A DNA stretch of 63,890 nt, filler included, from Dugesia japonica (lineage: Eukaryota), in assembly GCA_001938525.1 (NCBI GenBank). It is 6 parts of 6 records of this genome, joined end to end, with 100 filler letters (N's around TTAATTAATTAA, not from the genome) between each part and the next. Parts side by side here need not be neighbours in the genome. Positions count along the whole stretch, not along the records: positions 30,588 to 45,711 come from MQRL01319735.1; 5 more parts are not named here. One strand, written 5' to 3'. The position numbers and the translations under genes were made by a program. Below are positions 9,831-47,215 of this stretch, piece after piece. Below the pieces are notes generated by a model. The model made no database searches. It saw only the letters and a list, made by a program, of their open reading frames with translations, and was not told the DNA's origin. Numbering within the stretch: position 1 is the stretch's first letter; each line of letters opens with the position of its first letter.

Positions 9831-9837
9831 TATTTAA

Positions 9838-10164
9838 ATGAAAATAAATTTCGAAAGAAGTATTAAATTTTTTACTGTTTTGATTAAATCGCCTAACGTG
9901 TTGAGAATGAAAATTCTACAGGCGTTGCCAACCTATGTTGTTGAGGATTTGGTAGACATTATCAAAGGTTTTGTTAGTGGGAATATAACTACAAGTAGGA
10001 CTCAAAAGGATGCATTGAATAAATATAAAAGACCTATATTATCACTTGTAAATTCAAAGAGTAGAAGATTAACGAGAAAGATTATGCATGATCAAGAAGG
10101 TGGTTTTATATCAGTACTTCTACCAATTTTATTATACTCATTAGACGTGAGTTATCTCGAATAA
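9838..10164 (+). CDS. Polinton/adintovirus-type small basic protein with QxGGF-amphipathic tail (putative virion core or membrane-active precursor)
   Basis: LNKYKRPILSLVNSKSRRLTRKIMHDQEGGFISVLLP resembles the conserved LxKYKxxIRxL...RKIxxQxGGFLxxLL ORF of Polintons/adintoviruses; xGG-F resembles an adenain cleavage site. Confidence 0.6.
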   Translation: MKINFERSIKFFTVLIKSPNVLRMKILQALPTYVVEDLVDIIKGFVSGNITTSRTQKDALNKYKRPILSLVNSKSRRLTRKIMHDQEGGFISVLLPILLYSLDVSYLE

Positions 10165-11189: not shown

Positions 11190-13050
11190 TTACTAATTTT
11201 GATGATGTTAGGATTAATAAAACAAACTGGTAGCTTAATAGCATACGATTGTAATAATCCTATCCGATCAAGTATATACTCACTTGTTGATGCGGTAGAA
11301 TGCAATTAGGCCTACCCAGATAAAATAGACGTAATTAAGTCATTTGTGTATAATTATATCTTATTATATCTTATAGAACAAAGGTGAGGGAGTGCTGAGT
11401 TCAAAAAGCGGTGTTTGGATATTATTGTGGAACGCATAGTTATGCCGCTATATTATCACCTAGGCTCATACCACGACCAGTAAGCGTGTTACCAGAGGAC
11501 TGCTTAGATGCTTTTCGAACAGGAAAACTAAAAATTGATAGTAAAGTGACGTTAACAGCAGAAGTCGGAAAGATACTGGCAGAAGCAGTTATTAGAGGTG
11601 AAACAATCAATGAAAACGGTGATTGTACCGGTCCATCAAAAACAAGGCAGAATAATTTGGTAAATCGAGTATTTAATTTAGAAGACTATTCAGTTGAAAT
11701 GAGAGAATATGGAGGAATATTTGATGTGGAGACAGGAAATCTGGTGGGAAATCCACACTGCAATTCAAAGTTTTCTACCTGTCAAACGGGGTTTGCTATA
11801 CTTTTATATGATGAAAGACGTGATTTTTGTGAATTAAAATTATTTAAAAAGCTATGTTTTACTCAAATAAATGGAACTCGAAATAACGTGGAAGAAAAAG
11901 GATCCAGATTGATGGATAATCAAAAGGTTAAAAGGTTAAATAAAAAGCAAGTAGGAAACATGGTTAACAATTTACAAAGAGATGGAATTGAGGAGGAAAG
12001 TACTCCAGTTGTATTAGAATCAACTGATCCCAAGGGTGCAATACGATTTTTTAAGAAAGCTTCCACAACGAAATGCACTCATCTTGTCTACGAAACAAAT
12101 TATAAAGGTCTATATTTGGGGAAAACGAATATTCCTAAATCAACACAATTAAACGCTAAAGATATAAAAATGACAAATTATGTAAACAGCAATATTGATT
12201 ACGCCTATAATAGTTTGTTGTTTCAAATGAACGAAAAGTATCAAGAGATAACCTTGAACGACTGCAAATTGAGTGAAGAAATAATTAAAAATCGATTAGC
12301 AATATCGATAGTGAATCCTGATCTTGTTACTCCAATGTTGTCAGAAAAAGGAGTATTTGGAAAGATTATGGGAGAGGTAATATACAGCTATAATTGCGCA
12401 CCAGTAGATGTGTCGTTAGCTAACTTTAACTAATGTACAATAGATTTGCCAGTTGTTTGTGAAAATAAATTGAGATTCATGAGTCCAGTAACTCATATGT
12501 TATTAAATGAAAATGTGAAGCCACCGGAATCAGTATGTAATCCTGCAATGTCACCACTATACAAGACTTATGATCATTGGATTTCCTTGCCTGACAGGAA
12601 ACCGGCATCAAAACAAGTACAAACTTTAGATATATCATCTCTGTCCAAAAAAATAAAATTTAAAACAATGGATGAATTAGCTAAATAAGGAATATATACA
12701 GCTGAAGATAACGAGCAAGCCAGAAAAATGATGTAGTTCCTACATACGAGAAAAAGGGTATATCAGAGATAATCAGAACAGTTTATCAACAAAATGAGAT
12801 TCATCCTAACTATAAGTTATTGTTCGGGCCAGAGCACTATAAAGAAGCTGCCAGGAATGTGGCAAAGAGAATTTGGGGAAAATTTAGTGCATTTGGAGTA
12901 TTTATATCAAGTCTAGCTGGTATTTATGTTATTTGTGGGTTGGCAAAATTGGTATTTACACAAGTATTGTCGACCTATAGTATATTCAAAGTGGATGCAC
13001 ATGGGATTTGATGGTTGATTTCTTCCCGTTTTGTGCTAAATTTCTATTAT
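11190..13050 (+). pseudogene. Chuvirus-like (class III fusion) glycoprotein/env, with stops and frameshifts
   Basis: Hydrophobic leader then LIAYDC; YCGTHSY; DCLDAFRTG; GDCTG; GEVIYSYNCAPVDV; CTIDLPVVCENKLRFMSPVTHML; CNPAMSPLYK..HW; GIYT; TM segment WGKFSAFGVFISSLAGIYVI. Motif order is typical of chuviral G. Confidence 0.75.
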
Positions 13051-13065
13051 TTAAGCATCATCATT

Positions 13066-13560
13066 ATGAGATATTATCGCAAATTCATTCGAAACTTCTC
13101 AACATTAGCTTTTCCATTAACTCAATTAGAAAAGCTAGGAGTAAAATTCATTTGGGAGCTAGAGCAACAGAAAGCTTTTGAGGAGCTTAAGAAGCTGTTG
13201 ACATCTGCACCAATTTTGAGATACCCAGATTTCGAAAACCAATTTATAATAATGAGTGATGCTCGCAATAGAGGTATTGTTGCTGTGCTAGGTCAATTAG
13301 ACGATAATAAAAACGAATATGCAATAGCATATGCGAGCAGAGGATTGAAACCTCACGATAAAAACTACGCGGTTGTTGAATTGGAAACATTAGTAATATT
13401 TGCTATTGATATGTTTTGACATTATCTGTGGGGTAGAAAAATCGTTATACTTACTGATCACAAACCATTACAATGGTTAATGAAGCACAAAAACGACTTT
13501 TTAAGATTGATTAGATGGGCACTTAAATTACAACCAAACGATATTGAGATAACTTACCGG
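13066..13560 (+). pseudogene. Ty3/Gypsy RT thumb/connection and RNase H fragment
   Basis: YYRKFIRNFSTLAFPLTQL, FIWELEQQKAFEELKKLLTSAPILRYPDF, IAYASRGL, YLWGRKIVILTDHKPLQWL, RLIRWALKLQ. Confidence 0.9.
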
Positions 13561-14699
13561 ACCATGTACATATCAATCATGTCTGCTAGGAAAATGGCCA
13601 ATTTATTCGACATGTTTCCAGAAATAAAACATGAAAATAAAACATCCGAAATGTGGATTCACTGCATAAATAAGCCTTATGTGGTTTTAATTGCAGGCAC
13701 CAAAGGTCCTATATATTTGGACAAATGCACCACCTTAGAAATTAGTCATGGTGATGGAAGAGAGAAACGTCTATCAAATCAAAGCGAAAAAGATGGCACT
13801 ATGATAGTAGTAGAAATACTAAGCATAGTCAAGCTACGAGTAACCTTTTCGGTTAACTAGCCGTTATGGACTTATAACGTTAACATGAATGACATGAAAA
13901 CTTTAACGCCGTTTGTTCGTTTATCATTGACGCAGCTCCAAGAAGACAAGCTAACTTGCTTTGTTGCTGCACATTATTGTACAACAAGAGAAAATTTTAC
14001 TCCCGCTTTGGTAGCTGTTAGTTAACATTATAATCACCTCCAGACAACCTGTTAAGCATTATCAATCACACACATGGCTTACAAGAAGAGCAAATTCGTG
14101 GAAATTGAGACGAAGAAGACGCAAAGGTGGAAATCAAAAAATTTCTGGATGGGCGAATTCTAGTAGGAATTGTAGAGATATACAACGGAAAAAAGTTAAT
14201 CAAACCGCAATAATTGACGGCAGCCGTTCTAAGAGAACTATTCAACTTAAAGGATGAGAATATATAAAGTCCTCCATAGTTTATGTGGATAAAGAGACTA
14301 GAAATCTTTTAGTTTTTTCCTACAACTTCGCAACCAGATCAAGCAAACTACCATGAGTCATACCGAATCCTAAAACACTATCCAAGCTCCTCCAAGCAAA
14401 TTTAAAAAGAAGAAACATTCTCAATCTGGTCCTAGAATCAGTAAGTAGTAAAAGTTCTGATAGTGAGAGCCATAGCGTTTCTAGCTCCTTGCGTTCTTCA
14501 TTGAAGCCAATTCAACCCAACAATTATACCAATCCAAAATGGGAACCATAGCTGTAATCAGCTACTACCGTTTGCCATTATCCTTATTTACAGACATTTA
14601 TTTTTAATGAAATTAAAGTGTATTTATTATTCAAGCGGTGTAATCTCTGACTTTATTATTATGTGTTTATCATTAAAATTACTTGAATGTAGATATTTT

Positions 14700-19385: not shown

Positions 19386-21181
19386 CTATTCGGCAACATC
19401 TCCTCCTCCAATCTTCTGTTTCTTGGTTCCAGACAAAATATCATCGATTCGTAAAATCAGAATTGAGGTTTCGATAGCTGTTTTCAGAACCTGCGCTCGA
19501 ACCGGCAGAGGATCCCACACGCCCAACTTCTTCATGTCAACAATGGCGCCCTCCTCTCCATCAACACCGATACTCCAATTGTTTGCCGGATCAACAGCGT
19601 GTTTCGCTCGCAACTCGGTGATCAATCTCAGCACTTTAGCACCACAATTTTGGGCCAAAGTTCTTGGAATAACTTCCAGAGCGTTAGCAACACTCAAATA
19701 AGCATTCTGTCTTACTCCGACGATATTCTGGGCTTTCTGTGTCAAATGAGCTGAGATCGCCATTTCCAGAGCTCCTCCGCCGGGAACAAGAGTATTTTCC
19801 ACCATCACATTTCTCGCAACCGACATCGCATCTCCAAGATTTCTCTCGATCTCGTTCAACACATCTTTACTGCTACCTCTCAAAAGAATCGAGCAAGCTT
19901 TCGGATCTTTACATTCAGTGATAAATGTGAAATATTCATCACCGATCAATTTGATTTCGAACAATCCCGCTCCGGTTCCGATATCTTCTTCTTTCAATTC
20001 GTCGATATTACTTACAATGCTTGCACCGCAACAACGAGCTACTCTCACGTTATCGGTTTTTCTCAATCTTCGAAGAACAGTAATATCGGCCTTCACGAAA
20101 TAATGTTGAGCTAAATCGGAAACACCTTTTTCTGTGATAACGAGATCTGGTTTCATTCTGATAATATCTGCGCATAACTTCTCAACATATTCCTCTTCCA
20201 ATTGTAGCGCTCTCAACATATCGGATTCTTTGGTGATTTCAATCGATGTCTGAGATTCTCCTTTTTTGTATTCGATACTCAAATCCAATAAAAGTATTCT
20301 CGGATTTTCAATACGGCGTCTCATTCGAGGATGAACAATATCTTTATTGAACATAACTCCACTCAAAACAACAGAATCTTCTATTGTACCACCGGGAATC
20401 TTTTCAATTTTCACATATCTTTTTATATCTATTTCTTTTTTACCGTTTTCTTCTGTTGCTACTTTTGTTACTGCGTCAATAGCGATTTTACAAGCGAGAT
20501 CTGACCATTTATTTATGAATTTAGTACCCAAACAACTCTTGATAACGTTTAACATTTCATCACGATTTTCTGAATTAATCTTAACACTAATAAATTTATA
20601 ACTTATAACTAATTAGTTTAAATAATACCTGCAATGTGATCGCATGTATTCTAAAGCATCATCGAGAGCTTCTCTGTAAGCACTAATAATTTTAGTTGGA
20701 TGAATTTTTTCTTGCAATAACCCAGTCGCTTGACTTAACAATTCTCCAGCTAAATATTTACTTAAATTTGAAAATAACTTTTAAGTTTTCACCAAGTATT
20801 ATAACAGATGTTGTACCATCTCCACATTCTTCATCTTGTGTTCTTGCAATTTCTATCATAGATTTCGCTGCTGGTTGTTCAACGGTTATCTAGTAAAATA
20901 GTTATATTGGTAAAATATTCAATTTAAAGTACTTCTCTCAATATGGCATTTCCATCATTAGTCATAACTATTCCACCAGTAGGACTCATGAGCATTTTCA
21001 ACATTGCTCTTGGGCCTAAGCATGTTCTAATAACGTCAGCTACATGTTTAGCAGCAGAAATATTTTGTTCCTGAACTTTTTTCCCTTGTAAACGCTTGGC
21101 GTTGGAGTCTTAAATAAACAATAAATATATTTGCTAAAAACAAAATTCCTTACTTAAAATCATAACAGGCATTGCACTCAT
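19386..21181 (-). CDS. CCT3: T-complex protein 1 subunit gamma (CCT3); exons 21181-21154, 21108-20933, 20889-20793, 20749-20629, 20586-19386; 540 aa
   Basis: Spliced [25 protein letters not shown]...[12 protein letters not shown]...[10 protein letters not shown]...GDGTTSV...EYKKGESQT...LRIDDI. Four GT-AG introns (45, 43, 43, 42 bp) join in frame to 1623 nt. Confidence 0.96.
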
Positions 21182-29012: not shown

Positions 29013-30694
29013 AAGGAATATGAGATGAAGAACAAAAGTGACGATGAATGTGTGATTACCGAGGAAAGTCTTCGGGTCACCATAAATTATGTCAAAATAA
29101 ATGTGTATTTATTATCGAAGTCTCTTCATTGTTTAAAGAATAAATTTATTCAACTTAATAAGAGCCATAACAACTAAGACTTTCTAAAAGACGGGATACC
29201 GCATAGTCCCACATGGACTCAGGGTGGATGGAGCAATACAATGAGTGTTGCCAAATTTCTGCCGGCTCCGGGGTATCTGTCNNNNNNNNNNNNNNNNNNN
29301 NNNNNNNNNNNNNNNNNNNNNNNNNNNNNNNNNNNNNNNNNNNNNNNNNNNNNNNNNNNNNNNNNNNNNNNNNNNNNNNNNNNNNNNNNNNNNNNNNNNN
29401 NNNNNNNNNNNNNNNNNNNNNNNNNNNNNNNNNNNNNNNNNNNNNNNNNNNNNNNNNNNNNNNNNNNNNNNNNNNNNNNNNNNNNNNNNNNNNNNNNNNN
29501 NNNNNNNNNNTCCTTTTTAATATTTACTTTAAAAGCTGTAATCAAATAAGTACGGCCGACGTTACAGGGTTAAATAATAATTTACAGATAATTAATTACA
29601 GAGACTTCTTTTTCTTTTTAAACATAAATTCAAGAAACAAAGAAAATTATGAAATACAAAAATTTTATTTATATTTCTACGGATCTTCGATAAAAATTTT
29701 TTTAAGTAAACAAACTATTAATTTTAAGTTTATAAAATAATAAATAAATTTCAACTTTCAAAATTATATTTCACTTTTTCATGATAAATTATTCCAAATT
29801 TTTCACATAAAATAAAGATTTAAGGTTGATTAATGGCATCCCTTATATTTGGGCAATGAATTGCATGATATAAACAAGGAAATTCAATTGAATAATCCAG
29901 ATCACTTTGTCTTTTCATTTCAGAATTATCTTTTACAGANGATAATGCCCTTAAAATCATATCTTTCAATAATGTTGTATCTGCATTTGTTTTCAAAGCC
30001 TAAACATTATTTTTTTAAAAAAAAACTATTACGAATAAGATTTTTACCTGACTTTCGAATAGAAAAATTAAAAAAGCTCCAATATAAACCATTATTTCTC
30101 CTTGTTTCATTTGTTTTTGAAGATTTTTTAATTAAGAATATAAATTTTATTTTAAATCTAAATACAATTTGAGATCGCTTTTGATTTGTTGAAAAAAAAA
30201 ATTAATGAAAATTCATTGTGATTTTGTTTTGGGAAAATGAAACAATTGTCGTNNNNNNNNNNNNNNNNNNNNNNNNNNNNNNNNNNNNNNNNNNNNNNNN
30301 NNNNNNNNNNNNATAAATTATTTTCTTATTTTAATCATGTTTTTTATCGTTATAAAGAAAAAAAATCGTAAATTTTGCTACGATTTGTTGAAAATTACTC
30401 CAATATTTAGATGAATTAATATCCACTACTGACTTATTGTGGTATACAACTGATTTTTAAAATATGGGATTCTACCTCAAATTGAGCNNNNNNNNNNNNN
30501 NNNNNNNNNNNNNNNNNNNNNNNNNNNNNNNTTAATTAATTAANNNNNNNNNNNNNNNNNNNNNNNNNNNNNNNNNNNNNNNNNNNNTTTTACCAGTTAT
30601 CTGGCCCATTTTTTGGCCAGATTAATTAAAAAATATTAATTATAATAATGATAATTATAATAAATAATAATAAAATAATATATAATAATGTGTT

Positions 30695-30952
30695 CCAGCC
30701 CAACAGATTTATTGAAATCTGTAAAGAAGCGGTCACCGTCACCTATTGTATTTGTTCGACAATTATCTTGAATGAAAGGCCTTTTCTTTCTAATGGCTTT
30801 TTACAGCCCATTATTCTACATTTTCCATTTGGAAATATGATTATTGTATAATCGGGNNNNNNNNNNNNACATTGTTTTGGCTTATAAGTAAATTGAAGAC
30901 TATCTAAATTTTCAGTAGTATATCCTTTATAATTAATATTTGACATGGACAT
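30695..30952 (-). pseudogene. TATA-binding-protein-like gene (first repeat and start of second; in-frame TAG and truncation)
   Basis: SNINYKG..NLD; YKPKQ; TIIIFPNGKCRIMGCK (compare TALIFSSGKMVCTGAK); IQ*VTVTASLQISINLLG (compare IQNMVGSCDVKFPIRLEG). Confidence 0.6.
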
Positions 30953-31043
30953 AATTACAAAATAAAAGTGACTTATTTTGTTCTATTTATACTTTTTTGA
31001 CTATAAACAAAATCAATATGCTGATTAAAAATGCTTTACGATC

Positions 31044-31274
31044 ATGAATACTGAAGAGGAAACACGAATTGTATTTATTATCAAAGAATATGCAACTATG
31101 ATAATTGACGAAGTTTTGAAACTTGCTTCATCTAAAAACATGCTTAAATCAAACGAAGACGAAGAAGAAAAAGAGATGGATGATGAAGGAAACGATATGG
31201 ATGATAAAAACGTTACGAGTGGCGATGATGATGAAAAGGAAAACCTTATGAATGATGATGAAAATAATTATTAA
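31044..31274 (+). CDS. Small acidic protein, divergent from the TBP-like gene
   Basis: Intact 76-aa ORF with a D/E-rich C-terminus; back-to-back TATAAA at 30986-30991 (minus) and 31002-31007 (plus). Confidence 0.4.
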   Translation: MNTEEETRIVFIIKEYATMIIDEVLKLASSKNMLKSNEDEEEKEMDDEGNDMDDKNVTSGDDDEKENLMNDDENNY

Positions 31275-31469
31275 TCAAATGATTGTTCAAATAATTGTTA
31301 AAATTATTGTTTAATGAAAATTTTGGATTTATTTTTTCTTTACTTTAAAAAAAATATTAAATTAAGCATATTAAATAAAACATTAAAAAAAACAAGTTAT
31401 ATAAAAAAATAATAATTTATTTCTATGACATCAACAATAACACCAATAACAACACATTTTCTAAAATAA

Positions 31470-32060
31470 TTAACAACTAAAAACATCCATCAATTTCCAA
31501 ACAGGAATTTTGATTCCATTTTTTCTTTTGAATCCTTGCAGTAAAATTTTCACTTTAACCATTCCATCTTGTGCGGGCATACATTGATTTCCAGAATTTT
31601 CATACCAATTGAAATCCGTCACGCGAATATAGAATGATCTTTTCGTTGGGATGTCTGTTTATATTTCTGTATTAATTTGACTTAATTCATCTTTTAAGAA
31701 TTGAATATTTCTACCTGTTAATTGCGATATTTGGAAGCCGAATTTAACTTTTTGCATTTTGACAACATCCGGTAGAAGCAATGACTTATTTTCTTTGAGA
31801 AAAGTCATTTTAAAACCACGATAAGTATCCGACGGATTGAAATTTCCTTAAGAAAATAAAATTAATGGAATAATAATAATATTATAATAATAAAAGAAAA
31901 CTATCGTTGCTTTGCTTTTCCTCACCAAATATATCTTCATATGATAATTTTCTTTGTTTTTGATCTATTTTGCCGTATTCGTTGAATTGGCAAGAAAAGT
32001 CAAGCATCCCTTTATTCGCCTCATTAGTTTGAGAATCATCATTTCAAATTATTATAAAAT
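31470..32060 (-). pseudogene. Spliced element gene, possibly an OB-fold ssDNA-binding protein
   Basis: A 55-bp GT-AG intron (31901-31847) joins ...LSYEDIFGEEKQSND in frame to RNFNPSDTYRGFKMTF...VKVKILLQGFKRKNGIKIPVWKL; one internal stop. Confidence 0.35.
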
Positions 32061-32845
32061 GAATTATGATATTTACTTATTTACTATTTTACTTAATCAA
32101 TTATATCGATGTAATCGAACAAAATTTTGTCTAATTAAATTATTTATTGCATCTGCATTGCATCGACATCGCATCTGCATCGCATCGGCATAAGATTTTT
32201 GTTTTCAATGTAACATTGTTTATTATAACTATATTTAATAACAACAACAACAACATTTATTTTCATTATAAGTAGAATTATTTTATTATAACTACAATTA
32301 TTTTTTAACTAGAATTATTTAATAAAAATAGCAAATAAAACATTATTTTAGAAAACATTTATTTGTACAAAATAATAACAAAAAATATCACAATATTTAC
32401 ATGAAATTAATATTATTATTATTAATTTCGAATTGTTGCAATCGAACCCATGCATTTTCAAGTAAGGAATCTAGAAATCGATTGGTTCACTCTCCTATCT
32501 CTTCTTGCGGAAGATTCCACGGATTCGTTTCGACTCATCTTGTTGACATATTATTATCGTTATTTATATTGTTGATATTTAAAAGACCAAAATAATGAAT
32601 TAGATGCGTTATAAATATATATATATATATATTAATTTCAAATAAATGATATATTACGTTATGGTATTTTAAATTAAAATTTAAAAATTTGATAATATTT
32701 TATGTCAAATAATGCATACACAAACATAAAATATACAATAAAAAACATATCTTAAATACATCAGGTTACTATTACATTGCAGTATTTAATATTACATTAA
32801 ATACCGACGTTTTTTAGTTTATAATCTTTTTTTATTTTTGAAAAT

Positions 32846-33112
32846 ATGAACTGCAGACAAGAAAAATATACGAAAACAGTAAATTTATATTCTTTATTTC
32901 ATATATTATTTTGTTATTTATAGGATGCAACGAATCAAAATAGTTTGGATTGTGATTATTATTTTGATTATCTGGCTGATAGAAACCAGATCAGAAGATA
33001 TGAAAGGCAAAAGATAGATGATATCGAGAAATGGGTGAAAACCATGAAACAAAAAAAAATATTATTGTACATTTTTATAAAAACAATAAATGTTGTTAAT
33101 TCATGTTGTTAA
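32846..33112 (+). CDS. Small spliced ORF of unknown function
   Basis: Exon 32846-32878 (MNCRQEKYTKT), 45-bp GTAAAT...TTATAG intron 32879-32923, in-frame exon DATNQNSLDCDYYFDYLADRNQIRRYERQKIDDIEKW. Confidence 0.4.
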
Positions 33113-33251
33113 AACACATCGTGATACACACGATACACACATGATGCACATATGATGTAACCATAGATACGCACTAAAATCTATATTTAAAATAGTATAT
33201 ATAGTAAAACATATTTATTATTATTTCTTTTTACTAAAATCAATTTTCAAA

Positions 33252-33515
33252 ATGCTATGTACAAAATACCAAGTTTGTCAATCGCGATTCCACAACGATT
33301 GTAACAAAGTCATGGAGCTTTATTACAAATTCAAATCAAGAGGGACTATATTTTATATATGCCCAAACTGTGAAACGGCAGAAGCAACATCATATGAGGA
33401 ATTTTATGCAAAACATTCAAATCATCATCTTGGACCATTTAAAATATCAAAGAAGTCAATGTTCATTAGTTTTATAAACAAAATGAACAATGTTCAAAAT
33501 GATGGCAACAAATGA
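33252..33515 (+). CDS. Small Cys/His-rich (putative Zn-binding) ORF overlapping the PolB start
   Basis: CQSRFHNDC...CPNC...HSNHH. Confidence 0.4.
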   Translation: MLCTKYQVCQSRFHNDCNKVMELYYKFKSRGTIFYICPNCETAEATSYEEFYAKHSNHHLGPFKISKKSMFISFINKMNNVQNDGNK

Positions 33516-36500
33516 AATGTCTACAATCAATAATGTAAATCCAGTCAATCCAGCAAATTCAGTCATTCCAACAAATTCAGTCATTCTAACAAATTCAGTC
33601 ATTCTAACAAATTCAACCATTCAAGACAATCAAATCTACAAAGTTATTCAAAAAAGTCGTAAACGAAAAGGATCACCAACAGCAGCTTCATCATCATCAA
33701 AACGAAATTGTAATTATCAGAAAATGACCGTTATTATGAATGGGAGTCATATAGAGCTTTGTTTTGATGTCACTAGAAATAACACTCAAGAAATTATGCC
33801 ATTAAAAAGGTATGTGAGGAAGCAGAAAAACTGAAAAATTGTTAATTTGTTCACGGGCTTAAAATTCAATTTGAGAATCCGGAATGTGAAACAAAAGAAT
33901 GTCACGTTTCACTTCGTGCAGTCGAATATGAGCCGAATTTCATAAACAATATCTCACCAGTCTTAGCTGAAAAGGTACAAAATTATAGTGAAATGGGAAG
34001 CGGTTGGAAAATGGTAAAGGTAATACAATATTGTTTTAAACTAATAAAAATCCGTCCAATCCCATATTTTTCCGGCCGAATTTATATCAAATCTCCAGAA
34101 TCATTAATGCTACCATCAATGTTAAAAATGACAACAGCATTTTGGCAGTAGAAAAATATTCATTTATAAATCATCATCGCAAAAGAGTTACCAACTATGT
34201 TCCATTCTTATCAGAGTTAAATAATTCTATGGAAGAAATGCCAATGAAAAAAAAACATTTGAAAATTTGAACGAAATAATTTAGAGTTGGCTATTAATAT
34301 TTTTAAATATAATAATGAAGTGGATATCATCAAAAATCCCTACATTGACATCTTATATAAGAGCAAAAATGAAGATGGGAGAGAAATTAACTTGCTCCTC
34401 ATCAATAGAGAAGGGTAACAATTATAATTACCTTGCTTTTATAAATTTGGACAAGCTACTCAATATGAGAGATAAAAAAACTGAATTAGAATTCAATATC
34501 AATTTTGGTGTCGCAGATTTTTACACGGATTTCGATATCAATTGGGTTATGACAAACACTTACCCCTCTGTGATTCACACAATACATTAACCACGTTATA
34601 CAAAATGCCAAATCAAAAATATTGCGAATTTTTCGATTATTCGAAGACCATCAGCCCACCATATATTATTTATGCTGATTTTGAGTCAGTGTTGGAGCCG
34701 ACAGAAGTCTAGGAAAACTTTCATATGCCAGCATCAGCGGGTTTGTTACTTTTAGGACCAGATGGATCGAAAAGTTATGAGGAACAATCTGGTCAAGATT
34801 GTATCTGTCACTTTTATCAGCCTTGAATTCTATTGTAAAAACCAAGGTTTGCACATAGTACAAGAATGCTAAAGTGCAAATGTTGCCTCTATCACACGGA
34901 GAACAATATGCTTTCGATAATGCGACAGAATGTTATTTATGCTAACAAATTTCATCAAAATATGTAAGAGAACATTGTCATGCAAGTGGGAAATTTCTTA
35001 GAGCGGCATGTAACAAATGCAACATGAGCAGACAGAACAGATGGATGCTACCAGTATTTTTTCATAATCTAAAAGGATATGATATGCATCATATTCTGAA
35101 GCATCCTATCAACAAATTTCCCGCTTACAATTTAAATGTTATTCCACTAACAACAGAAAAATTTTCAACATTTACTGCCTACATCAAGATGGAACAAGGA
35201 AAAACGGTTTCAATCAGGTGTCTCGATTCTTACCAGTTTTTATCAGCGTCATTAAAAACTCTGGCTTCAAATTTGCAAGAATTTCCAATCACTAAAACAG
35301 CATTTTCAGATATCGTTATCAAAGGTAAAGGCGTGTTTCCATACACACTTGCTTAATCATTCAACGATCTCAAATCAATCAAACAGTTACCGGCAAAATG
35401 GGACGATATATCTGATGCAGAGTATAGTGATGCTATTCAAGTAATGAATCAGTACAAATGTGTCAATCTCCTGCAATATATGCTAATTTATATTTTTCAA
35501 CAATTCAGAGTGCAAGTTAAACAACAAGATAGAATGGAAGCAGCTAACTTCGTTTCTATACCGGCTTTAAGTTGGGCAATAGGTATAAAAACATGCCCAC
35601 TCATAATTGATTTACTACAAGATCCGGAAATAAATTTCTTTTTCCAGACTGGCATAAGAGGCGGAATGACCTTTGTCAATTAACACAGGGTCATAGCAGA
35701 TGAAACAACAAGTCTGCTCTATATCGATATCAACAACCTCTATGGCTGGGCATTGAGTCAACCATTGCCATATACTGATTATAAATGGATAAATAATGAT
35801 GAAGAGTTGAAGATTCTAATTGATATGTTGCCATATTTGAATATTGAAAAGGAAGAAAATGGACTTGTTTTCGAAGTAGATTTGTCAATCCCTACAGAAG
35901 AACACGATAAGCTGTATCAACTACCTCTTGCACCGATTAATCAATGTCCACCGGGAAGTAAAGTTAAAATATTGCTTTTAACTCATGAGACCAAGAAAAA
36001 TTTTATTATCCATTATCGCCTACTACAGATGTTTATCAAATTGGGAACGAAAGTTGACAAAGTTCATTGTGCAGTCTCATTCAATAAAAGCTGCATTTTA
36101 AAGTCGCTTATCGAATTCAACTCAGAAAAGCGGGCTCAAGCCAATAATGCCTTTGAAAAAAGACTTTTATAAGTTAAAAAAACAACAGTCTTTAAGACAG
36201 GACTGTTGAAAATCTTATGAAAAGAATGAATTTAAAGCTATGTAACAATGACAAAAAGCTGCTTACCTATGCTTGCAAACTGCAATTCAAGGATTCAGTA
36301 GAAATTTGCGATAATTTAGTGGTGGTTCTAATAGATAACACTAGATAGACCGTCATACATTGGTTAAGCAGTTCTTGATTTATCAACGCTGCGTATTTAT
36401 AACCTACAATATGAGGACTTGAAGTCCTATAGTGAAATATTTATCTGCGAAATTAAAATCGTTGCAGGTGATCGGATAGCTTTTTCCTCGAATGTAAAAA

Positions 36501-36930
36501 TGTCAAACTTCGAGATCAGCTATTACTACCAATGATTCAAGACCGGATTTTAGATACATCAAATTTAGATAAAGGCGATCCGCTTAATTCGATATATCTT
36601 TAACAGTCGCGATTGGGAAATTCAAGGATAAAAATCGCGCAATGTCGAATTTTAAGGAATGGATTTTCCTACGACTGAAATCCTATTCAATCCAAACAGA
36701 TTCGAAAACTGTGATGAAAAATAAAGGAATCACATTGAAGAAAACTAATATAAATCATCAATATTATATTAATTCTTTTGAAAATGGAGAAGAAAAAAGA
36801 CTGGAACAAAGCAGAATAGGATAGGCCAATCTTCAGTAATTTACAATCAAATGTTCGAAAAAAGCACTCGATCCATTCGATAATAAAAGAAGCTGGGTAG
36901 ACAAAAATATTTTAAAAAAATTTAGATATC
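33490..36930 (+). pseudogene. Protein-primed DNA polymerase B of Polinton/adintovirus type, with many stops and frameshifts
   Basis: GSGW (about 33995), YADFES (ExoI, 34671), EHCHASGKFLRAACNKCN (endonuclease VII-like insert), FHNLKGYD (ExoII), CLDSYQFLSASL, KGVFPY, GIRGG, LYIDINNLYG..SQPLP (motif A), GKFKD, RLKSYS, FDNKR (36876). Confidence 0.92.
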
Positions 36931-37254
36931 AGTATGTAATAATATCTTAAAAATTATAATATTAATAACATCTTTAATAATTCATCTTCCAAAAAATGGA
37001 CACTTAAAAAAAATATTCAACGTTCTAAAAAATAGACATTTAAAAAAATTCAATGTTTTAGAAAAAGGACATTGGAAATTTATAATTTATTCTAACTTCG
37101 ACATTTTAAAAAAAATATTCTATGTTCTAGAAAATGGGCATTATAAATATATAATTAATTCTAGCTTTTAGATATTTAAAATCAAAAAAAAATAAAATTT
37201 CAAATTTTTCAAATTTTCTTTTTAGATTTCTATCTATGAAAAATTGTAGTTTCT

Positions 37255-38641
37255 AGTAAAAAATAAATTTTTCAAAAAAGTATTACTCAAGTCGCTCAAA
37301 AACAATGGAGGACGCGAGGACAGAAACTTTTGAACCTTATATCATCACCAGTATTCAATGTAAAACATTTTTAAAAATACCATTATACTTTATTTATTTT
37401 TCTTAATTTTCTCATTTTTTAAAATATTTTAAAAATCAAAATTTTATTTTTTATTTTTCAGAAAAAATTTTTCAAAAATATTAAAAAAAAATTTTCTTTT
37501 CATAACATCCAATCATCTGAATGCGGACACAAAGGCTACAGATAGTTCAGCAATTATCCCGACTCTATTCCTCTTAGTTGCTGAGAAAAATCGAAAAAAC
37601 AAAAAATTTCCAAGTTACCATAGCAACCGTCCCATTCTTCGTTACCAAGGTCAGAAAAAAATCTATATTTCATTACAAAAATAATTTTTCAAAAAACTAT
37701 AGTGCAACTTGCTCAAAAACATGAGAGGACACAAGGACAGAAAATTTAGAACTTTATATCGTCACCAATTTTCTATAATGAAATTTCAAAAAATTTCAAA
37801 TATTTTTCTCAGTTTTTTAAAATTTTAAAATTTTCAAAAATCAAAAATAAATTTTTTATTTTTTCAGAAAAAATTTTAAAAAAATCGGGTTGCCATGACA
37901 ACATGCCCCATAGATACGCACACCTTGGTTACACATTACAGAATAAGTTTCCGCGCACCATCGCCCTTAGTTACCGCACAAAATCAAATGGTTACGGTTA
38001 TTTCCCCCCTGTTCTTCTCGCGTCCTCCTTTCCCACTACTATACCTTTTATAATTAAATTGTTTTTAATTTGTAAATCCAAATCGATCATTCCAATTATT
38101 TATAATTTACAATTCTAAATTAAAAATCCCAATGTATAATATTGTTTAAAATTTACTAATAATTTTTTACATAATAAGAATTATAAAAATTTGATAGAAA
38201 GATTTAAAATTTTTACATAAAAGTAGAATTGAAAAAAAAATGAGCGCACGAAACAAGGGGCCCTCGAGGGAGGGGGCCTAACCTCCACCCTACCCCTATG
38301 ATTCATCAAAAATTTTTTAGGGGCGGATGATGAGTTATCGATGTGATGAGTCATAGGGTACCCCTAAAATTTTTTGGTTAGGGGGGTCATAGGGTACTCC
38401 CAATTTTCAAAAATTTTCAAAAATCGAAAATAAATTTTTTATTTTTTCAGAAAAATTCGAAAAAAATCTAAAAAAATCTAGTTGCCATGACAACACACGC
38501 ACACTTCGGTTACACATTACGCAATAAGTTTCTGCGCACCATCGCCCTTAGTTACTGCACAAAAGCAATTTTCTGTTATCGCAACGGTTGCCATGGAAAC
38601 GGTTACCCCCGCCTGGTCTCGCGTCCGTCTTTCCCACTACT
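37255..38641. mobile_element. Subterminal repeats and two tandem, diverged right termini (ending CCCACTACT at 38040 and 38641) of the PolB-bearing element family
   Basis: Direct repeats about 37265-37470 / 37683-37880 and 37825-38040 / 38410-38641; X-boxes at 37614, 37889, 38481 and 38587; ACTACT ends as in Polinton TIRs (5'-AGTAGT). Confidence 0.7.
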
Positions 38642-41034
38642 AGGTATCGATTTTGATTTAATAGTAAATTTTAATAAATGTTTATATTATTTTTAAAAAT
38701 TTTGATAATTATTTTACATGTACAACTTATATATACTACGATTAGTATAAATAATGGTACTAAATTCATTATTCCCCCTTTTTTATAATCTTACAAAGAC
38801 CTAAACTTTCTAAAGTTGCACATCAAAAATTAAAAATAGAAAACACTATTGCTGTAATATTTGAATAAAGAATAAAACTTAAAAGTAAAATTTTGTTTAT
38901 CTTATAGTAACACCATTGGCATTAAGTATTCAGCAATGTTGATGGCATAATGAATCGACCACTTGTCGTATTTTCAATTCAAAATCGAATTAGTCGCTTT
39001 AAATTCTATTAAAGTTTTCTTAACCCACTTTTTTCTGATCCTCCTGAGCAAAGATATCCATCTATACTAGCTGACATATCAGTCAATTTTCCCATGATTC
39101 CAAACTACTTACATGTCATATGGAAGATCAGCGTTGGGTACTATCATTTTAATTCCTCCGTGACAAATTATCATCGATTAGCCATTGGGCATTACTGTTA
39201 GGATTGATTTTAATCCCATCGGCGGAATGTCAAACATGTTGAGTAATATGGAATTTAACAAGTGATCTTATTGTATTTAAACTGAAATATGATATTAAAT
39301 GTGTCATTCTTAAAATTTGTTTTACGGTATTTATTATTGATTTGCTATTAAATAAGATCTAATTAGTATTGTTAATATCAGTGTGTTCTGCAGAAAACAA
39401 CCATTATAATTAGTCGGAACAAATATATTTCGATTCTCAGCAGCTATTTCTTTATGGATTATTGTAAATTCTAGTGCCAACATGATAATTATTCCTTATT
39501 ATTGTTTCAAAATTTATTGTGAATTCTACTGATCATGACAAGTGTTCCTAGGATTATGACTACTAATTATATGGTAATACTGTGTAATAACATTAAGGAT
39601 TTTATGTTTTGCATATGCTTGTCTTCATTAACGATGTTAATATTATGATTAAAGATTTATTAATAGTAAAAAAGACATTTTGTTATGATTTACGGGGAGC
39701 GTTTAAACCGCTATTTCAAACAACCCAACTTCCCTCGTATTGGATTCTATTTTTGCCTTTGATTTTATGTTCTTCATTAGTGCCTTAACCAAAATTCTTA
39801 AATTTTCTATGATTCTCTTTGTTGGGAAACATCACATGCAACCATAACATTTAAACATTCAAAATACAACTGATTACATACACATACACAAACAAACTCA
39901 ACAGATGAAACAGCGAAGCTCATCACCAAATGCCCCAATCAACTAGAACCTCAATCAACAATCAATTCGAATCGTTCAACATCTGATTTAACAATTTTAA
40001 TCTGACCGAATTATTTCGTTTGACATTTTTTTTATCAGTTTTATTCTATTACTTGACAGTTATTTATTATTTAATGCTGTATATTTTAGTATTTTTCTTT
40101 ATAATCTTATTTTATTTCTACAATAAATCAACTGTATTTAAAAATCAAAGTCTAAATTTGAAAACCAACTTTAGAGAAATTCGATCAAATAAAACTCTTA
40201 ATTGATTGTAGAAAGAAATTCAATATATTTTAATATAATTTTATTTATTTTGAGAAATTCAATATTTTAATGTATTTTATTTATTTTTAAAAATAAATTT
40301 TTTTAATTTAATCTAAATTTATTTAATTTTTGGAATTTATTTGTAATCTTAATGGAATTTTATTTATTTTATTAATGTATCTATACGCGTAATTTTGGTA
40401 TAAATAGAGAATGGTTTCTCAGTCAATCACCCTTAAAAAATTTAAATCTCAAGTCGAGTTTAGTTTTAACGAAACGACACTCGCGAGATAAAAATAATAA
40501 CGCCTGTAAAATTGTAATCAATAAAAGTTTTATTTAAACTAATTATAGTCTATAATTATGTCCGGCGGTTCCAGGTGCTACTCCATATATTATCCACTAA
40601 AAAACACCTTAGGTATTGTATATGTTTAGACATATTTATCTAGAATGAAAGAATAATTTAATTAATTGATAACACAAAATTTAAGTTTATCCGTCAATAC
40701 TCATGTCGACATTGGTGTGTAATGAGAATAACTCTACGAAGCATCGCAGATCAGTTTCGTCGGGCGACAGAATCTGCTCAGGTGTTAAAATATGACATAT
40801 CAATTGTCGCTTTCGAGATTTTTCTCTTTCCTGTTGATAAACGCAAAGTGTCCCATAATACTTTGGACATGGGTTTGTATCCTCTGCCCATGTACTAATA
40901 GAATTATTGATGTTTTTTGCTGTCACTCATCTATGTAGAGAAATTATAGCGTTGTAACGATTGAATTTTTTATTGATGGTGAAACAGTTGTGTCAATTAT
41001 TATTATTAATATTAATTATTATTATTAATACTTA

Positions 41035-41470
41035 TAGTGTTGAGATTCCATCTGAGTTAGTGATAGAAAACCTTAGCTGGGGAGAAAAATCAACCCTCAG
41101 TGGACCCCTCAACCCATAGTTAGAGTTCCGAATCGCACACCTTGTTTCGAGTTCACAATTCCCTTTAATTTTTAGGATTATTACGACGAAGATAAACGAT
41201 TTACAAGGAAAATTTATTTACAAAACATCTAGAGCTTCAGGATCTAACCACTGTACGGGCACGTCGTCTGTGAACCCGAACGCGGCCTCGTCATCGTCAC
41301 TAATTCATGGTTTGGAAGCATCAAAACTGTAACTCGCTGTCAGTTCAGCTATATATTGATTCAAAAAATTTACTTTATTATAAAGTTGGTGTGCCATTTT
41401 ATTGGCGATTTCAAGTAAGTAGTAACAAAAACTAAGACCATCGTGAACTAGAGACGCCTTAACAATAAAC
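41035..41470 (-). pseudogene. Unknown protein, QWLDP family copy 1
   Basis: KVNFLNQYIAEL...P*ISDDDEAAFGFTDDVPVQWLDPEALDVL; paralogous to 44735-45200. Confidence 0.55.
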
Positions 41471-44400
41471 GTTCAAAATAACATTATATTAAGCACTCAT
41501 TATCTTGAGCATACCAAATAAATATCTAAGCCTTAAAAATATATCAACATTCATGGATTATTAACTCTCACGTTAAACTCAATCCAGAGTTTGTCGTCGT
41601 ATTATCCTGTCCGTATTAATAATACAGGCAGTAAGGAAAATCCAATCAATCTTCGGTAAAGCTTAACGAATTACAGATTAAACTTGAATTAATCTGGCTT
41701 GATTTAAATGACTAAAACGCCCCAAAACTTCCCGGAACCGACAGCTTTTGGACAGTCGACCCAGTCGAACATTCGGCGAACAACTAAAAACTTGGCACAT
41801 ACCTCCCAATCTTTGCAGAAAAAGATAGTTATGTTAGTAGTAGAAGTTTCCTCTATGAGGAAACAAAATATAGAATACAACCGGTGAATCAAATCTCAGG
41901 GTATGAAGATTTGGAAATTGGAAGCGGAGATCAAATGGATCCGACATAAAAATGAAAGTTTATGAAATCATCCCTCAACATCGGCGAGCCCACCTCCTAA
42001 GAAGGCTAAGTTTTTATTATATTAAATTTATCTAAGATTAGGAATTCCTGATTTGTAATCATTAGACAGTTATGAAAGTCTGAAAATAGGAAAAATTTTT
42101 GATTTCTCTACAAATGTTCGAATTTACAGGAATTTTCAGATTAATCAATGCGAAATTTGAACAAAGTTTCGGGAACCTTATTATAAATACAATAAATTTT
42201 TCCTATTTTATACATTAATTTTTAGTATTCATATTATTATTATTTAAATGACTATGAACAAAACTACTATTTTATTTTCGAATTGTGTGCAATTTAAAAA
42301 TTTTTATTTTCATTGCAATTTAAATATTACTAGTCAAATTAAATGAAATGACTTTCTTTATCTCAGAAAATTTGAATTTTAAATTTTCAGTACTAAACTA
42401 AAAGTTTGTTCATATTGTTTTCAACAGAAAAAAATTAGTGCAAAGAAACAAAAAGAAACAATAGATCAATATACTGAAATAGCATCATTCTTGACAAAAA
42501 CAAGCCAGAAAGATGACGAATATATTATGAAATCATCGAATCTGTTAATGAAAATTCTTTCGATACAATGATTNNNNNNNNNNNNNNNTATTTTTAATCG
42601 TGGAAAGTGAATAAAAATAATAAACATTATAACAGTTATAGTAATTGATCCTCGTGATTTGCCATTTATACATTAAAATAAGTATTTTTATTCTTATTAC
42701 CTTCAGAAACACATCTAAATTAAAATCATCGAAAACACAAAATTTTAAAAACATCATTCCTTAAATATAATTTAATATAATCAATAATAATGCTGAGGCG
42801 AAACACCCGGAGGAATGAGAAGCAAAGTCGAAGGGGACCAGGAATAACCCAATATTAAAATAAAGATTACCGGAAGAAAAATCCAGACAATGATATTAAA
42901 TGGAAACTCAGAAGACCAAATCAAATACGATTATTTATAATAATCGCAAAATTAATAAAATTATTAAAGAAAATGGATAACAAAAGAAGGAATGAATATA
43001 AAAAAAATTAATAATTAATTCAACAAAAAAATTTATTAAAATTAAGACAAAATCCGTTTTACCCGAATAACTTCGCTCAAGGAGATCGGAAAGAACCCGG
43101 AGAAGAAAATATGAAAAGAGAACAAGACGCATTTAAATTGCTAAGAAAAAAATTACCACCATCCAGAAGGTTGCTACAGGGTCCTTAAGATCGGGCCAAT
43201 AGGAAATCTAAAAATAAAAATAAAACAAAGAGACAAGTATTATGTGTCCGTCCAAAAATAGACGCCAATGATAACTCCAAAATTCCATGAAAATTCTAGA
43301 GAATTGGCATTGGAGCCAATAGAATCGGAAAACGTCGATCTAAAAATAATCAATAAATCTGGAAAAGTTGGGGTGTCAAGAAAATCCTATAAAAGGACCC
43401 CCGATTTTAGAATAAAAAACACAAAAAATTTTTAGTTATCTAATTGTACTTTCGTATATAAGCGCACCTATTGAACTTTAGTACCAGACCTATTATTGAT
43501 AAAAGGAAGAAGAAAAACCGCTTATCAATTCATAATTAATTATCGTCAATCAAGAATAATTCAACCCCATCAGAGCACCAACAGGTAAATTATAGTAACT
43601 TAGCGTCAGTAAAAAGAAAAAAGAATAAGCCACAGAAGGAATTCGGGTTTTCTATCAAATTTATACGCCTAGGGATAGCCATATCAACTACGATCACCGT
43701 TGCAGAAAATTTCCAGTAATATAGAAAAATTAAAGTAATTATTTTTTATTTCTTGTTAAAAATCGGGTTATTGATAAAATGTTGAATATTATGTATCATA
43801 ATACATTAATTTATATTGAAAATTTTATGTTATTATTCGTCTCAGATAAATAAGAAGCATGGCAGATATTTTGTTGATAATTTGGATGTCGATTAAAATA
43901 AAAAGCAACAAATTTTTTATATACATATGTATATTGGAATTAATTCTGTATTAATAACCTTATAAAGAAACCAAACAGTAAATCAGTCTTACTACTCATT
44001 AAAATAAATATATTATTACTTCGTAAATAACGTAATTCTAAATTATGTCATATGTAAAGCAAATAATGGGCGGTTAATAAGAAAATGATATGAGCGGTTG
44101 AACCTGTTTTTCTTTTTGTTTCGTCCAATAATTTTATAAAAAATAAACCATAAGAAAAAGAAAATTATATACTAAGTGTTTATTTCGTAAAATTAGTAAA
44201 TCATCAAAAATTGCTACTAAACTCGGCTAGTTCAAGTGCATTATTCCAGATAATTCGATCATAAGTCCTCGCTGAACAACAATCACCGATCATTAAACTC
44301 CCATTTATTCAGAAATAGCAACGAGTTGTGCCACAGGACATCTTTAAACAGAAATAATTATTTTGCTGGAGTATTTCCCCGACAAAATAAATATTACGCA

Positions 44401-44734
44401 TTCCAAAAAAATCTATAAGCTTGTCCGATCGATATTCACAATTACTACAAGTTGGTATGCGTATGTAAGGGCTAGCTAATTAGTCACAAATTTACATTAA
44501 CGCTTTTCACTTAACTTTACATTCTATTTATACACACATACTCAGAACTTATCTTAAGATTCTGACACACTGATCGATATAGTCACTAGGCAACAGTAAC
44601 GAGCGGTAAGTCAAATAAAAAAAATATATATAAAAAACCAATAAATTTAATTCAGTTATTAATTTTTTTTGTTGTATGGGGAGTTTTATTAATATTATAA
44701 CTACCATTCTTATAAATATTAATAATGATATTAA

Positions 44735-45711
44735 TAGTATTGTTGGGGTCCCACTTGAGTTGAGTGATACGAAAAGGTGGCTGGGGAAAAACAGCCTTCA
44801 GGGGAACACTTTTAAGAATTTACCCTACCATCCCTGGAGTAGGTTTTCAGTTTATAGCGGTTGACCTTACTCTTAATGGAAGGTACACGCCGTTAAACTT
44901 TTATTTCGGGTTCAATATTTTTCTCTTATTTGTATTATTAAAGACAAGATATTACAATTCTGGTTACAGGTGTTTATTACATAAAAATATTTGAATTAAA
45001 TCAAGCCCTCCTGGATCCAACCATTGGTCTGGATCGGACACGGAGAAATTGAACGCGGCAATGTCGTCATTATCTTTCCATTGCAATATTGAGGGGTTGT
45101 TTATCTGAGGGGAGAGGTCAGCAATATACTGTTTGAGAAATTCTATCTTTCTCAACAATATTTGTTTAGTTTCTTCCTCAAGTGCTTTGGTTTGGGAAGC
45201 CAGATCCGTTTGCTTTCTTACGATCAGATCTAATTTTTTTATAAGTTAGTCACGCTGAGCTAAATGCCTGAGGATGGTCTTATCCACCTTACGCTTCAGA
45301 TGACGTTCGACCAGTAAGCGGCGCCTAATTCTATGGCACTTTTTCAAACTCGTTGGAAATGTGATTCTTGGCACTAAAATCAAGAATTATAATTAAGCGG
45401 CCAAAACCCAATTCAGGAGAAATAAAGTCAATTTAGGTAATAAATGGTTTATTAAAAATCATAACATAGCGGACAAGGTAACTCAAGAACGGCCAGTTTG
45501 GGTGCCTTTATCAATCATGAGAGGCTTCAGATAAGATTTCTCTTTTAAACGAAGAATGTCTTTGACCAGTTTATTCTTACGGTCATGGCTGGACCGGATA
45601 ATTTCAGCGAAGGATTTTACCTGGGCCTTCAAGACCGGCTCTTGCTCCTGGACCAACTTCATTTCGTCGCGGATGTTTGAACATTTGGTTTTATATCTTT
45701 TTACTTTCGCG
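44735..45711 (-). pseudogene. Unknown protein, QWLDP family copy 2, with coiled-coil-like upstream coding sequence
   Basis: KIEFLKQYIADL...QWKDNDDIAAFNFSVSDPDQWLDPGGLDLI...PLKAVFPQPPFRITQLKWDPN. Confidence 0.55.
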
Positions 45712-45811: not shown

Positions 45812-47215
45812 CCCAAATTTGGAATTAATTTAGATGAATCAACTTTACTTAGCAATAATTCATGTTTTATTGTATATATATACTAGATCAGTTAATAAAG
45901 ATGACACATCCAGAAAACTTGTTTTTGCATTTGATTGAATTTTCATAGACAAAGTGCTGAATGTATATTTATCACTCTATTAGCAGAATTAAATATCCTT
46001 GGATTAACTGAAGCTATTTTACAAGATTGTCTTATTTCCTTAATTTGCGGTGGTGCTGCTGTTTTGCTAGGACGTAAATCTGGAGTTGCTAAATTGCTTC
46101 TGGAAAAGTACCTTAATCTTATAATAATAAGATTAAAAACATTACTGGTGTTAATTATCTTAGAACAATTGTTGAAAAAATACGTACGCTATATGCTTCT
46201 TCTCCTAAGAGCCAACGAGAACTAAAAGCATGTTCGCAATCATTTGATCAGTCTCTATTAAAAATTGAATGAATTGTAGATGTTTGTTGGGTTTCATCCT
46301 CTTTGAAAACCGTAAAAGCACTCTGGGTAGATTAACCTGCTTTATTTAAGCATTTTTTTAAAGCTTAAAGAGGCAAGAAGAGACGAATACGAAATGACTA
46401 AGTTTAGCGGATTAGCTTTGAAAGTAACATCAATTGCTTCTGTTCAGAACTTGTATATGATGCCATGATGGACCTATGGAATTTATCTTTAAAACTGGAA
46501 GAAAGAAAATGTACAATAATTACATCTCTCCGGGAAATATGTTTACAAGTTCGTATTTTTGAATCCATAATAGATCAACTAGGAAGGCATTAGTCCGAAA
46601 CAATAGCGGCAGTGCAAAAGAAAACGTTTCGTGGTGTTGAACTTGTAATTGGGAATAAAACAAACTTGGTCTTCGATTTATAGGAGTTTGGACAATAACC
46701 TTCTCTCAAGAATGTTTGTAATTAGACACAATGATACAAATTAATCTAAAATAAAGTATAATAATTATAGTATGTAGCCTGTAATTAAGAAATGTGGCAT
46801 ACGGTACAGCGAAGAAGAGGTCTGCTTGTTCTCACAAAGATTTAATATAAATCGAGAAACTGCAATAAAAGATTTTCGAACATTCATAAATACGACTGGC
46901 AGTAAAATTTATACAAATTTAAATCAACATTTTACAGTAATAACTACAATAGCAATTTCAAGTGCAGAATGTGAACGAATATTTTCAGCTATGAATTTAA
47001 TAGTAACACCAACATGTTCGTCTTTATCGACTAGAACTTTCTCAAATTTGCTATTTATAAAACATTTTGGTTCTCCACTTACTTTTTTTTATCCCAAAAG
47101 GTATGTTTGCAGTTGGCTAGCCAAAGGAAAACATAGCGCTCTAGACACTCAATCGAGATCTAGGAGTGCTAAAGTATATGACGAAAATATGGAAAAAATA
47201 TGGAATTTATTATAA
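45812..47215 (+). mobile_element. Degenerate hAT transposase, KIAA1586-like family
   Basis: INLDEST; GGAAVLLGRKSGV; C-terminal dimerisation domain AISSAECERIFSAMN...SNLLFIK..GSPL..F.P..YV.SWL..GKHSA. Confidence 0.85.

Follow-up and report, generated by a model that had tools for sequence, protein, structure and literature searches.

A Polinton-linked family of minimal TATA-binding proteins, present as a pseudogene in Dugesia japonica, and a candidate ATAAAC promoter box

The stretch of DNA analysed here (the window) comprises 63,890 nt from Dugesia japonica (GCA_001938525.1), and the locus of interest lies within its MQRL01319735.1 part (positions 30,588 to 45,711). An earlier note on this DNA had recognised three consecutive TBP segments in a broken reading frame, and that recognition holds. 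On the minus strand, an intronless frame that begins at ATG 30952 and extends to 30701 encodes NINY..ENLD, TIIIFPNGKCRIMGCK and IQ(stop)VTVTASLQISINL, which together make up lobe 1, with no helix H2, and the first strand of lobe 2. With X placed at the breaks, this frame matched the Pfam TBP family (PF00352) at E=2.4e-4 and 21.3 bits, just below the cut-off of 22.9. TBP accounted for 14 of 14 matches at E<=10 in a PDB sequence search (best 8.5e-4), and a profile made from 27 ORFs of related loci matched 30952-30701 with an iE of 2e-22 over positions 1-86 of 150.

The frame is interrupted by an in-frame TAG at codon 70 (30745-30743), contains 12 N at 30857-30868, and lacks about 60 C-terminal residues. 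The two lobes are not both present: homology ends at 30701, profile position 86 of 150, and the region of the TFIIB-binding Glu pair is absent. The interval where the remainder of lobe 2 is expected (30588-30700) holds AT-rich, low-complexity DNA that ends at a scaffold-type gap (30488-30587). The window copy is a pseudogene of a Polinton/adintovirus-encoded mini-TBP, incapable of forming a two-lobed saddle; the stop codon and the lost C terminus agree with its earlier description as pseudogenised. The earlier note had also remarked that the long helix was mostly missing. It is absent, but as a trait of the intact family and not as a product of this copy's decay: the intact relatives P0019 and P0020 align with the window copy over 83 aa at 72-73% identity and with no more than one gap, which makes the short linker a property of the family.

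The TBP gene stands head-to-head with an ORF of 76 aa on the plus strand (31044-31274), which contains 26 D/E residues and an acidic tail, and the two are separated by a 91-nt spacer. Within this spacer, the minus strand carries a canonical TATAAATA (30991-30984) at a distance of 39 nt from the TBP ATG, a candidate host-TBP or early promoter that is weak alone; the plus strand carries TATAAACA (31002-31009), the non-canonical box of the family described below, 42 nt upstream of the start codon of the acidic ORF. The spacer had been read as a shared bidirectional TATA promoter. Boxes are indeed found on both strands, but they differ from each other, and the bidirectional TATA alone is weak, since 417 of 5000 shuffled sequences also have TATAAA on each strand. 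This particular combination of boxes is rarer, at 27 of 5000, but was picked post hoc.

Further along, a broken gene of a 116-aa family, with one stop, occupies 31485-31823 on the minus strand (iE 5.5e-15). It is followed on the plus strand by a protein-primed PolB degraded by many stops and frameshifts (33156-36911; PF03175 E 4e-7, and E 7e-78 to the PolB of related locus L026). PolB homology covers 33996-36911 and the first fragment ORF is at 33156, which places these divergent remnants 2.2-3.0 kb from the TBP gene, in line with the roughly 2.5 kb reported before. An intact member of the 116-aa family gave a confident model (pLDDT 91) with a predicted T7 gp2.5/Enc34-type ssDNA-binding OB fold. 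The model aligned to T7 gp2.5 (1je5) with Z 7.6, rmsd 2.9 and 105 aligned residues, a Z below 8 being moderate only, and also matched DUF2815, Enc34 SSB and ASFV CP312R; Foldseek returned no match for it under 1e-3. Members adjoin TBP in six related loci (L008-L012, L017) as well as in the window. The window thus preserves the TBP, SSB-like and PolB genes of one element. A longer, acidic-tailed family (L019, L021, L028, L032) may be related to the 116-aa family, at 15-20% identity.

Intact two-lobed relatives of the window copy were sought and found. The first, P0003, is 160 aa long, 47% identical to the window copy, and matches PF00352 at E 3.9e-16 in two TBP stretches; five more, of 144-158 aa, make an intact set of 144-160 aa that reaches 73% identity to the window copy. 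The TBP fold proposed for the locus was confirmed on P0003, whose AlphaFold2 model (pLDDT 88.9) has helices, counting elements of four or more residues, only at 22-27, 93-103 and 143-159; the two lobes are joined without a long helix. Foldseek placed 44 PDB matches at E<=1e-3, TBP in all the matches listed (best 8e-10), and the ESM Atlas gave 0.97 to TBP clusters. Structural matches in a viral library were weaker and included TBP-named proteins of large DNA viruses as well as herpesvirus BcRF1.

Among representatives clustered at 50% identity, a profile search returned 41 at E<=1e-30, and by motif screen and inspection the best 150 representatives divide into about 130 family members and 20 cellular-type or other TBPs. 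Viral contigs scanned with a TBP query or with alignments yielded nothing, or only distant matches of 30-38% identity. In a quick IQ-TREE analysis of 70 selected rows, a branch with SH-aLRT 99 divided the 50 family rows from 20 rows of cellular-type or other TBPs. P0107, which bears the family C-lobe motif, was placed inside the family. The window copy grouped with P0019, P0020 and P0022, again at SH-aLRT 99. The family did not group with host TBP in this tree, among whose rows TRF2/TBPL1 were not included.

Sequencing data came from 24 listed runs, all labelled with one organism. DNA contigs yielded 997 records on the 1.3 kb around the TBP gene, most of them less than 95% alike, and the summed DNA depth over the TBP ORF was well above that over PolB; this points to many related TBP copies in the organism but does not count them. 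Few RNA reads covered the TBP ORF (136, 160 and 26 in three runs); they fell on both strands and were never 99% alike, and some diverged from the window sequence at 30705. These reads stem from other copies and are not evidence for expression of this one.

We compared 47 near-full-length family members with 8 cellular TBPs, placing yeast positions by motif and numbering residues (F116, E186 and so on) as we take them to run in yeast TBP. Family and cellular proteins share the two-lobed saddle, the equivalents of F116, F190 and F207 (kept in 47/47 members) and the Glu-x-Glu stirrup that binds TFIIB (E186 and E188, each in 46/47). The family departs from cellular TBP on the DNA face, through V122R (46/47), T124M (47/47), N159S (47/47), V161T/S (46/47) and L205N (47/47). 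An F99 equivalent is not conserved, F standing in that column, whose register is uncertain, in 6/47, so that three of the four intercalating Phe are invariant. Identity to cellular TBP is about 21-28% in structural alignments. The family core measures about 145 aa, as against about 180 in cellular TBP, and its lobe 1 has a shorter H1 and no H2; the gene is that of a mobile element.

The loss of helix H2 follows from the T124-N159 spacing, which has a median of 23 in the family (16-34) and is 35-36 in cellular TBPs. What short-linker members have lost is the basic N-lobe site for TAF1, Mot1, TFIIA and Brf1. In the passages of PMC7221094 drawn on here, the basic patch for TFIIA, TAF1, Mot1/BTAF1 and Brf1/2 is assigned to the N-lobe, H2 contributing three of the four basic positions named; the partners that grip the patch do so through acidic segments. 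A longer subgroup of 26 members retains more of the H2 region (median F116-F190 distance 69, n=25, against 74) and shares the RxMG and xNxF signatures with the rest of the family; because it carries the same signatures, the DNA-face changes probably arose before the helix was lost.

For gene neighbourhoods, a metagenome scan confirmed at least 476 stretches, of which 80 were kept and 26 (L007-L032) taken as family members; one further locus, L090, came from 40 genome-contig loci, for a total of 27 loci, most of them short and without termini. The genes around these relatives (PolB, rve integrase, FtsK/A32 ATPase and adenain) are those of adintoviruses, Polintons and Mavericks. Seven of the ten family loci of at least 3 kb carry a Polinton hallmark (ATPase, integrase, adenain or PolB), six by Pfam and L027 by clustering, and adenain is also present in the shorter L015 and L022. 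Both loci above 10 kb have PolB, ATPase and an rve-chromo integrase, with adenain in addition in L090; the PolB of L026 matches PF03175 at E 2e-21, and that of L090 matches the window PolB by tblastn at E 9e-51. The recurrent linkage of TBP to PolB that had been anticipated is thus borne out in 2/2 loci of this length. Integrase, packaging ATPase or adenain were found in L010, L011, L014, L022, L025, L026 and L090, and none of the three beside the window copy, which ends at the gap. Neither TFIIB nor an RNA polymerase was found among 56 ORFs scanned from the partial loci. Conserved ORFs of 412-424 aa and 346-514 aa sit at the positions expected for capsid and penton; these labels rest on size and position, with no match for either in Pfam, PHROGs or PDB.

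Several other genes recur near TBP. An unannotated family of about 160 aa with a 'DFEAF/DFEGF'-like start, which we take to be exonuclease-like, is found in seven loci (L014, L015, L018, L022, L023, L026, L090). LRR-domain genes lie close downstream of the TBP gene in L023 and L029, KilA-N genes occur in L026 and L027, a PLA2-like gene in L026 and a RING finger in L025. L090 (12.4 kb) is an almost complete Polinton that includes TBP; its record bears the title of a bacterial MAG, but the contig is probably that of a eukaryotic virus placed in the wrong bin.

We then considered the upstream DNA of 31 morphogenesis-module genes. They come from 9 loci, a set in which L026 and L027 are close relatives and which is uncorrected for kinship among the others. 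The top de novo 6-mer was ATAAAC, found at -60..-5 in 15/31 where 1.5 were expected. Within 120 nt upstream, ATAAAC[AG] precedes 28 of the 31 genes, with none on the reverse strand, against a mean of 1.74 and a maximum of 7 in 1000 shuffles. The distance between box and ATG is 10-118 nt, and the box holds for 10/11 Pfam-supported genes and in 8/9 loci. It stands before genes for packaging, integrase, protease and the putative capsid; the integrase carries it though it is not a structural gene. The same motif precedes 0/21 TBP genes and 0/5 of the SSB-like genes checked. Canonical TATA was found before 8/21 TBP genes (shuffle mean 3.8, maximum 11), and TAAGA was not enriched before module genes (2/31, expected 6.4). 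As a control, TBP-less Polinton loci were sought in viral contigs by capsid, ATPase and integrase alignments, and none were found. Outside the 31-gene set, TATAAACA also occurs in the window directly upstream of a second Polinton remnant. That remnant, at about 9809-10134 (+), is a homologue (iE 4e-24) of the small ORF found behind the ATPase gene in elements that carry TBP.

From the sequences of protein and promoter together, we favour the reading that the intact mini-TBP is a late-promoter factor, predicted to bind an oriented [T/C]ATAAAC[A] box before the packaging, integrase, protease and putative capsid genes, and we consider this reading probable. It competes with the idea that a host factor reads the box, either a forkhead protein or host TBP with some tolerance of TATAAAC, while the viral TBP competes for TFIIB, dampens host transcription or binds element DNA. 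We regard this idea as a serious but distinctly less likely account. TATAAAC is one base off canonical TATA, and ATAAACA presumably fits the forkhead consensus. Yet ATAAACA occurs 26 times in sense and 0 in antisense, GTAAACA is found before 0/31 module genes and GTAAATA and ATAAATA before one each, and the strict orientation together with the scarcity of the GTAAACA and GTAAATA forms disfavours a forkhead site. Canonical TATAAAW/TATATAA is likewise not enriched upstream of module genes (5/31 against 4.4 in shuffles), C or G precedes ATAAAC in 6/28, and near-invariant substitutions mark the viral protein's DNA face. That ATAAAC might be a poly(A) or other 3' signal of the upstream gene is very unlikely. 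The module genes are packed head to tail and the motif resembles AATAAA, but the preceding base is T in 22 cases, C in 5, G in 1 and never A; AATAAA (5, expected 7.7) and ATTAAA are not enriched, which also disfavours a poly(A) site; and in the window the box occupies the spacer between two divergent genes, where its strand has no preceding gene.

Two further alternatives concern the genes of the window and not the box. The earlier note had cast the acidic ORF as a partner of TBP, an activator or DNA mimic in a two-gene transcription module. The head-to-head arrangement across a short spacer and the 26 acidic residues out of 76 suit such a role, and the first half of the ORF is present in further copies from this organism as well. 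However, no homologue was found in the protein collection at 41-133 aa or in 129 loci, domain and structure libraries gave weak matches only, and the basic N-lobe/H2 patch that acidic partners grip (in the cited passages of PMC7221094) is lost in this subgroup, leaving the partner role unsupported; we judge it improbable. Because an ATAAAC box precedes the acidic ORF, as it would a target gene, and a canonical box precedes TBP, the ORF is a candidate target and not a partner. We give hardly any weight to the alternative that the gene is a retrocopy of host TBP or TRF, inserted by coincidence beside a PolB fossil with which it has no connection. The copy is intronless and broken, the window is full of nested repeats, and TRF2/TBPL1 are missing from the tree; against this, the match to cellular TBP is about 35% over 25 aa only, far from the 72-73% shared with intact members, the OB-fold neighbour is the same in 6 other loci, Polinton genes surround the relatives, and many related copies occur in the DNA runs. 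The retrocopy reading largely fails because, in the tree described above, the family forms a large clade apart from cellular TBPs.

In the late-promoter reading, the TBP gene would be transcribed first, from a host-type promoter. The re-tuned saddle would then read ATAAAC, and its Glu-x-Glu stirrup would recruit host TFIIB and hence Pol II, while a mini-TBP without the basic H2 patch may escape TAF1, Mot1/BTAF1, TFIIA and Brf1. The predicted outcome is an early-to-late switch for particle genes. We hold it about evenly balanced whether Polinton-class viruses possess, in this form, the smallest known private promoter system: a 145-aa TBP without the regulatory helix, re-tuned to ATAAAC and using host TFIIB and Pol II for a late virion programme. 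The element-encoded transcription function suggested in the earlier note appears to be backed by the matching upstream box.

A dedicated TBP with a defined box would provide a direct handle on whether particles are formed by animal Polintons, by what route, and how their capsid genes are switched on; box-driven transcripts would mark the late phase. If the reading is correct, it would amount to a functional sign of a lytic-type cycle in these 'transposons' and to a natural orthogonal TBP-promoter pair. The family would also represent a natural minimal TBP in which the main regulatory surface is lost and the TFIIB contact kept, with substitutions that predict altered DNA specificity. The window copy itself is a relic, and mainly adds a host and the conserved TBP-SSB-PolB neighbourhood.

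A functional parallel may be drawn with KSHV ORF24, a beta/gammaherpesvirus vTBP that, in the passages of PMC12529657 used here, acts on TATTWAA late promoters. Common to the two are kept Phe residues, a polar DNA face, a non-canonical box before late genes and, as predicted for the family, host Pol II. ORF24 is, however, a multi-domain protein that contacts Pol II itself and acts together with further viral activators, whereas the Polinton protein is reduced to the core, with the TFIIB stirrup retained; most family members consist of a 144-180-aa core and not of a large protein with a Pol II-binding N-terminal domain. The resemblance to ORF24 appears to be one of function and not of class membership. 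The TBPs of large dsDNA viruses, as treated in the same passages of PMC7221094, share with the family the absence of the N-lobe regulatory patch, proposed there to permit escape from Mot1/BTAF1. Most of these viral TBPs have diverged at the TFIIB-binding Glu, which about 40% keep, and they are accompanied by a viral TFIIB; in our family, by contrast, each Glu is conserved in 46/47. Giant-virus TBP/TFIIB systems co-encode TFIIB or an RNA polymerase, neither of which appeared among the 56 ORFs scanned from the partial loci. 'TBP' appears once as a label on MELD virus maps, in a figure legend on non-animal datasets (Starrett et al. 2021, PMC8502044; preprint 10.1101/697771), where, in the portions of that paper used here, it stands as a label alone, without analysis of family, structure or promoter. 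Beyond that paper and its preprint, we found no link of adintovirus or MELD elements to TBP in a literature search that left subscription journals, figures, bioRxiv supplements and Repbase-type annotations outside its scope.

Downstream of the window PolB, imperfect direct repeats at 37239-38600, possibly subterminal, contain four RFX/X-box-like palindromes. The window as a whole has 22 strand-matches (11 sites) to such palindromes against 0.36 expected. Four of the sites (37614-38600) and another six (900-1548) lie, as two groups, each downstream of its own PolB remnant; the remaining site is at 6587. The RFX-rich character ascribed to the element termini is thus real as far as the sites go, and their terminal position is at most possible: no inverted-repeat partner of 36901-38750 was found in the window, the left side being lost at the 30488-30587 gap. 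No X-box-like palindromes were found in the 27 family loci, most of which are without termini. Near the window start, over 3-158, 340-805 and 900-1548, a third PolB fragment is followed by three imperfect repeats spaced 226 and 132 nt apart and by the six palindromes, the same order of PolB, repeats and palindromes as at 34-38.6 kb.

The remainder of the window is AT-rich and repeat-laden. A host CCT chaperonin exon of 408 codons lies at 19386-20612 (-), a hAT dimerisation fragment at 46778-47215, and a Tc1/mariner-type transposase at 58243-60813, between RNase H and integrase fragments of an LTR retrotransposon. Near RT-RNase H fragments, at 11399-12433 (+) and 13012-13860 (+), a 344-aa ORF matches a Monjiviricetes-type fusion glycoprotein (PF24664, E 2e-26); it could be a retroelement envelope or part of the nearby Polinton remnant.
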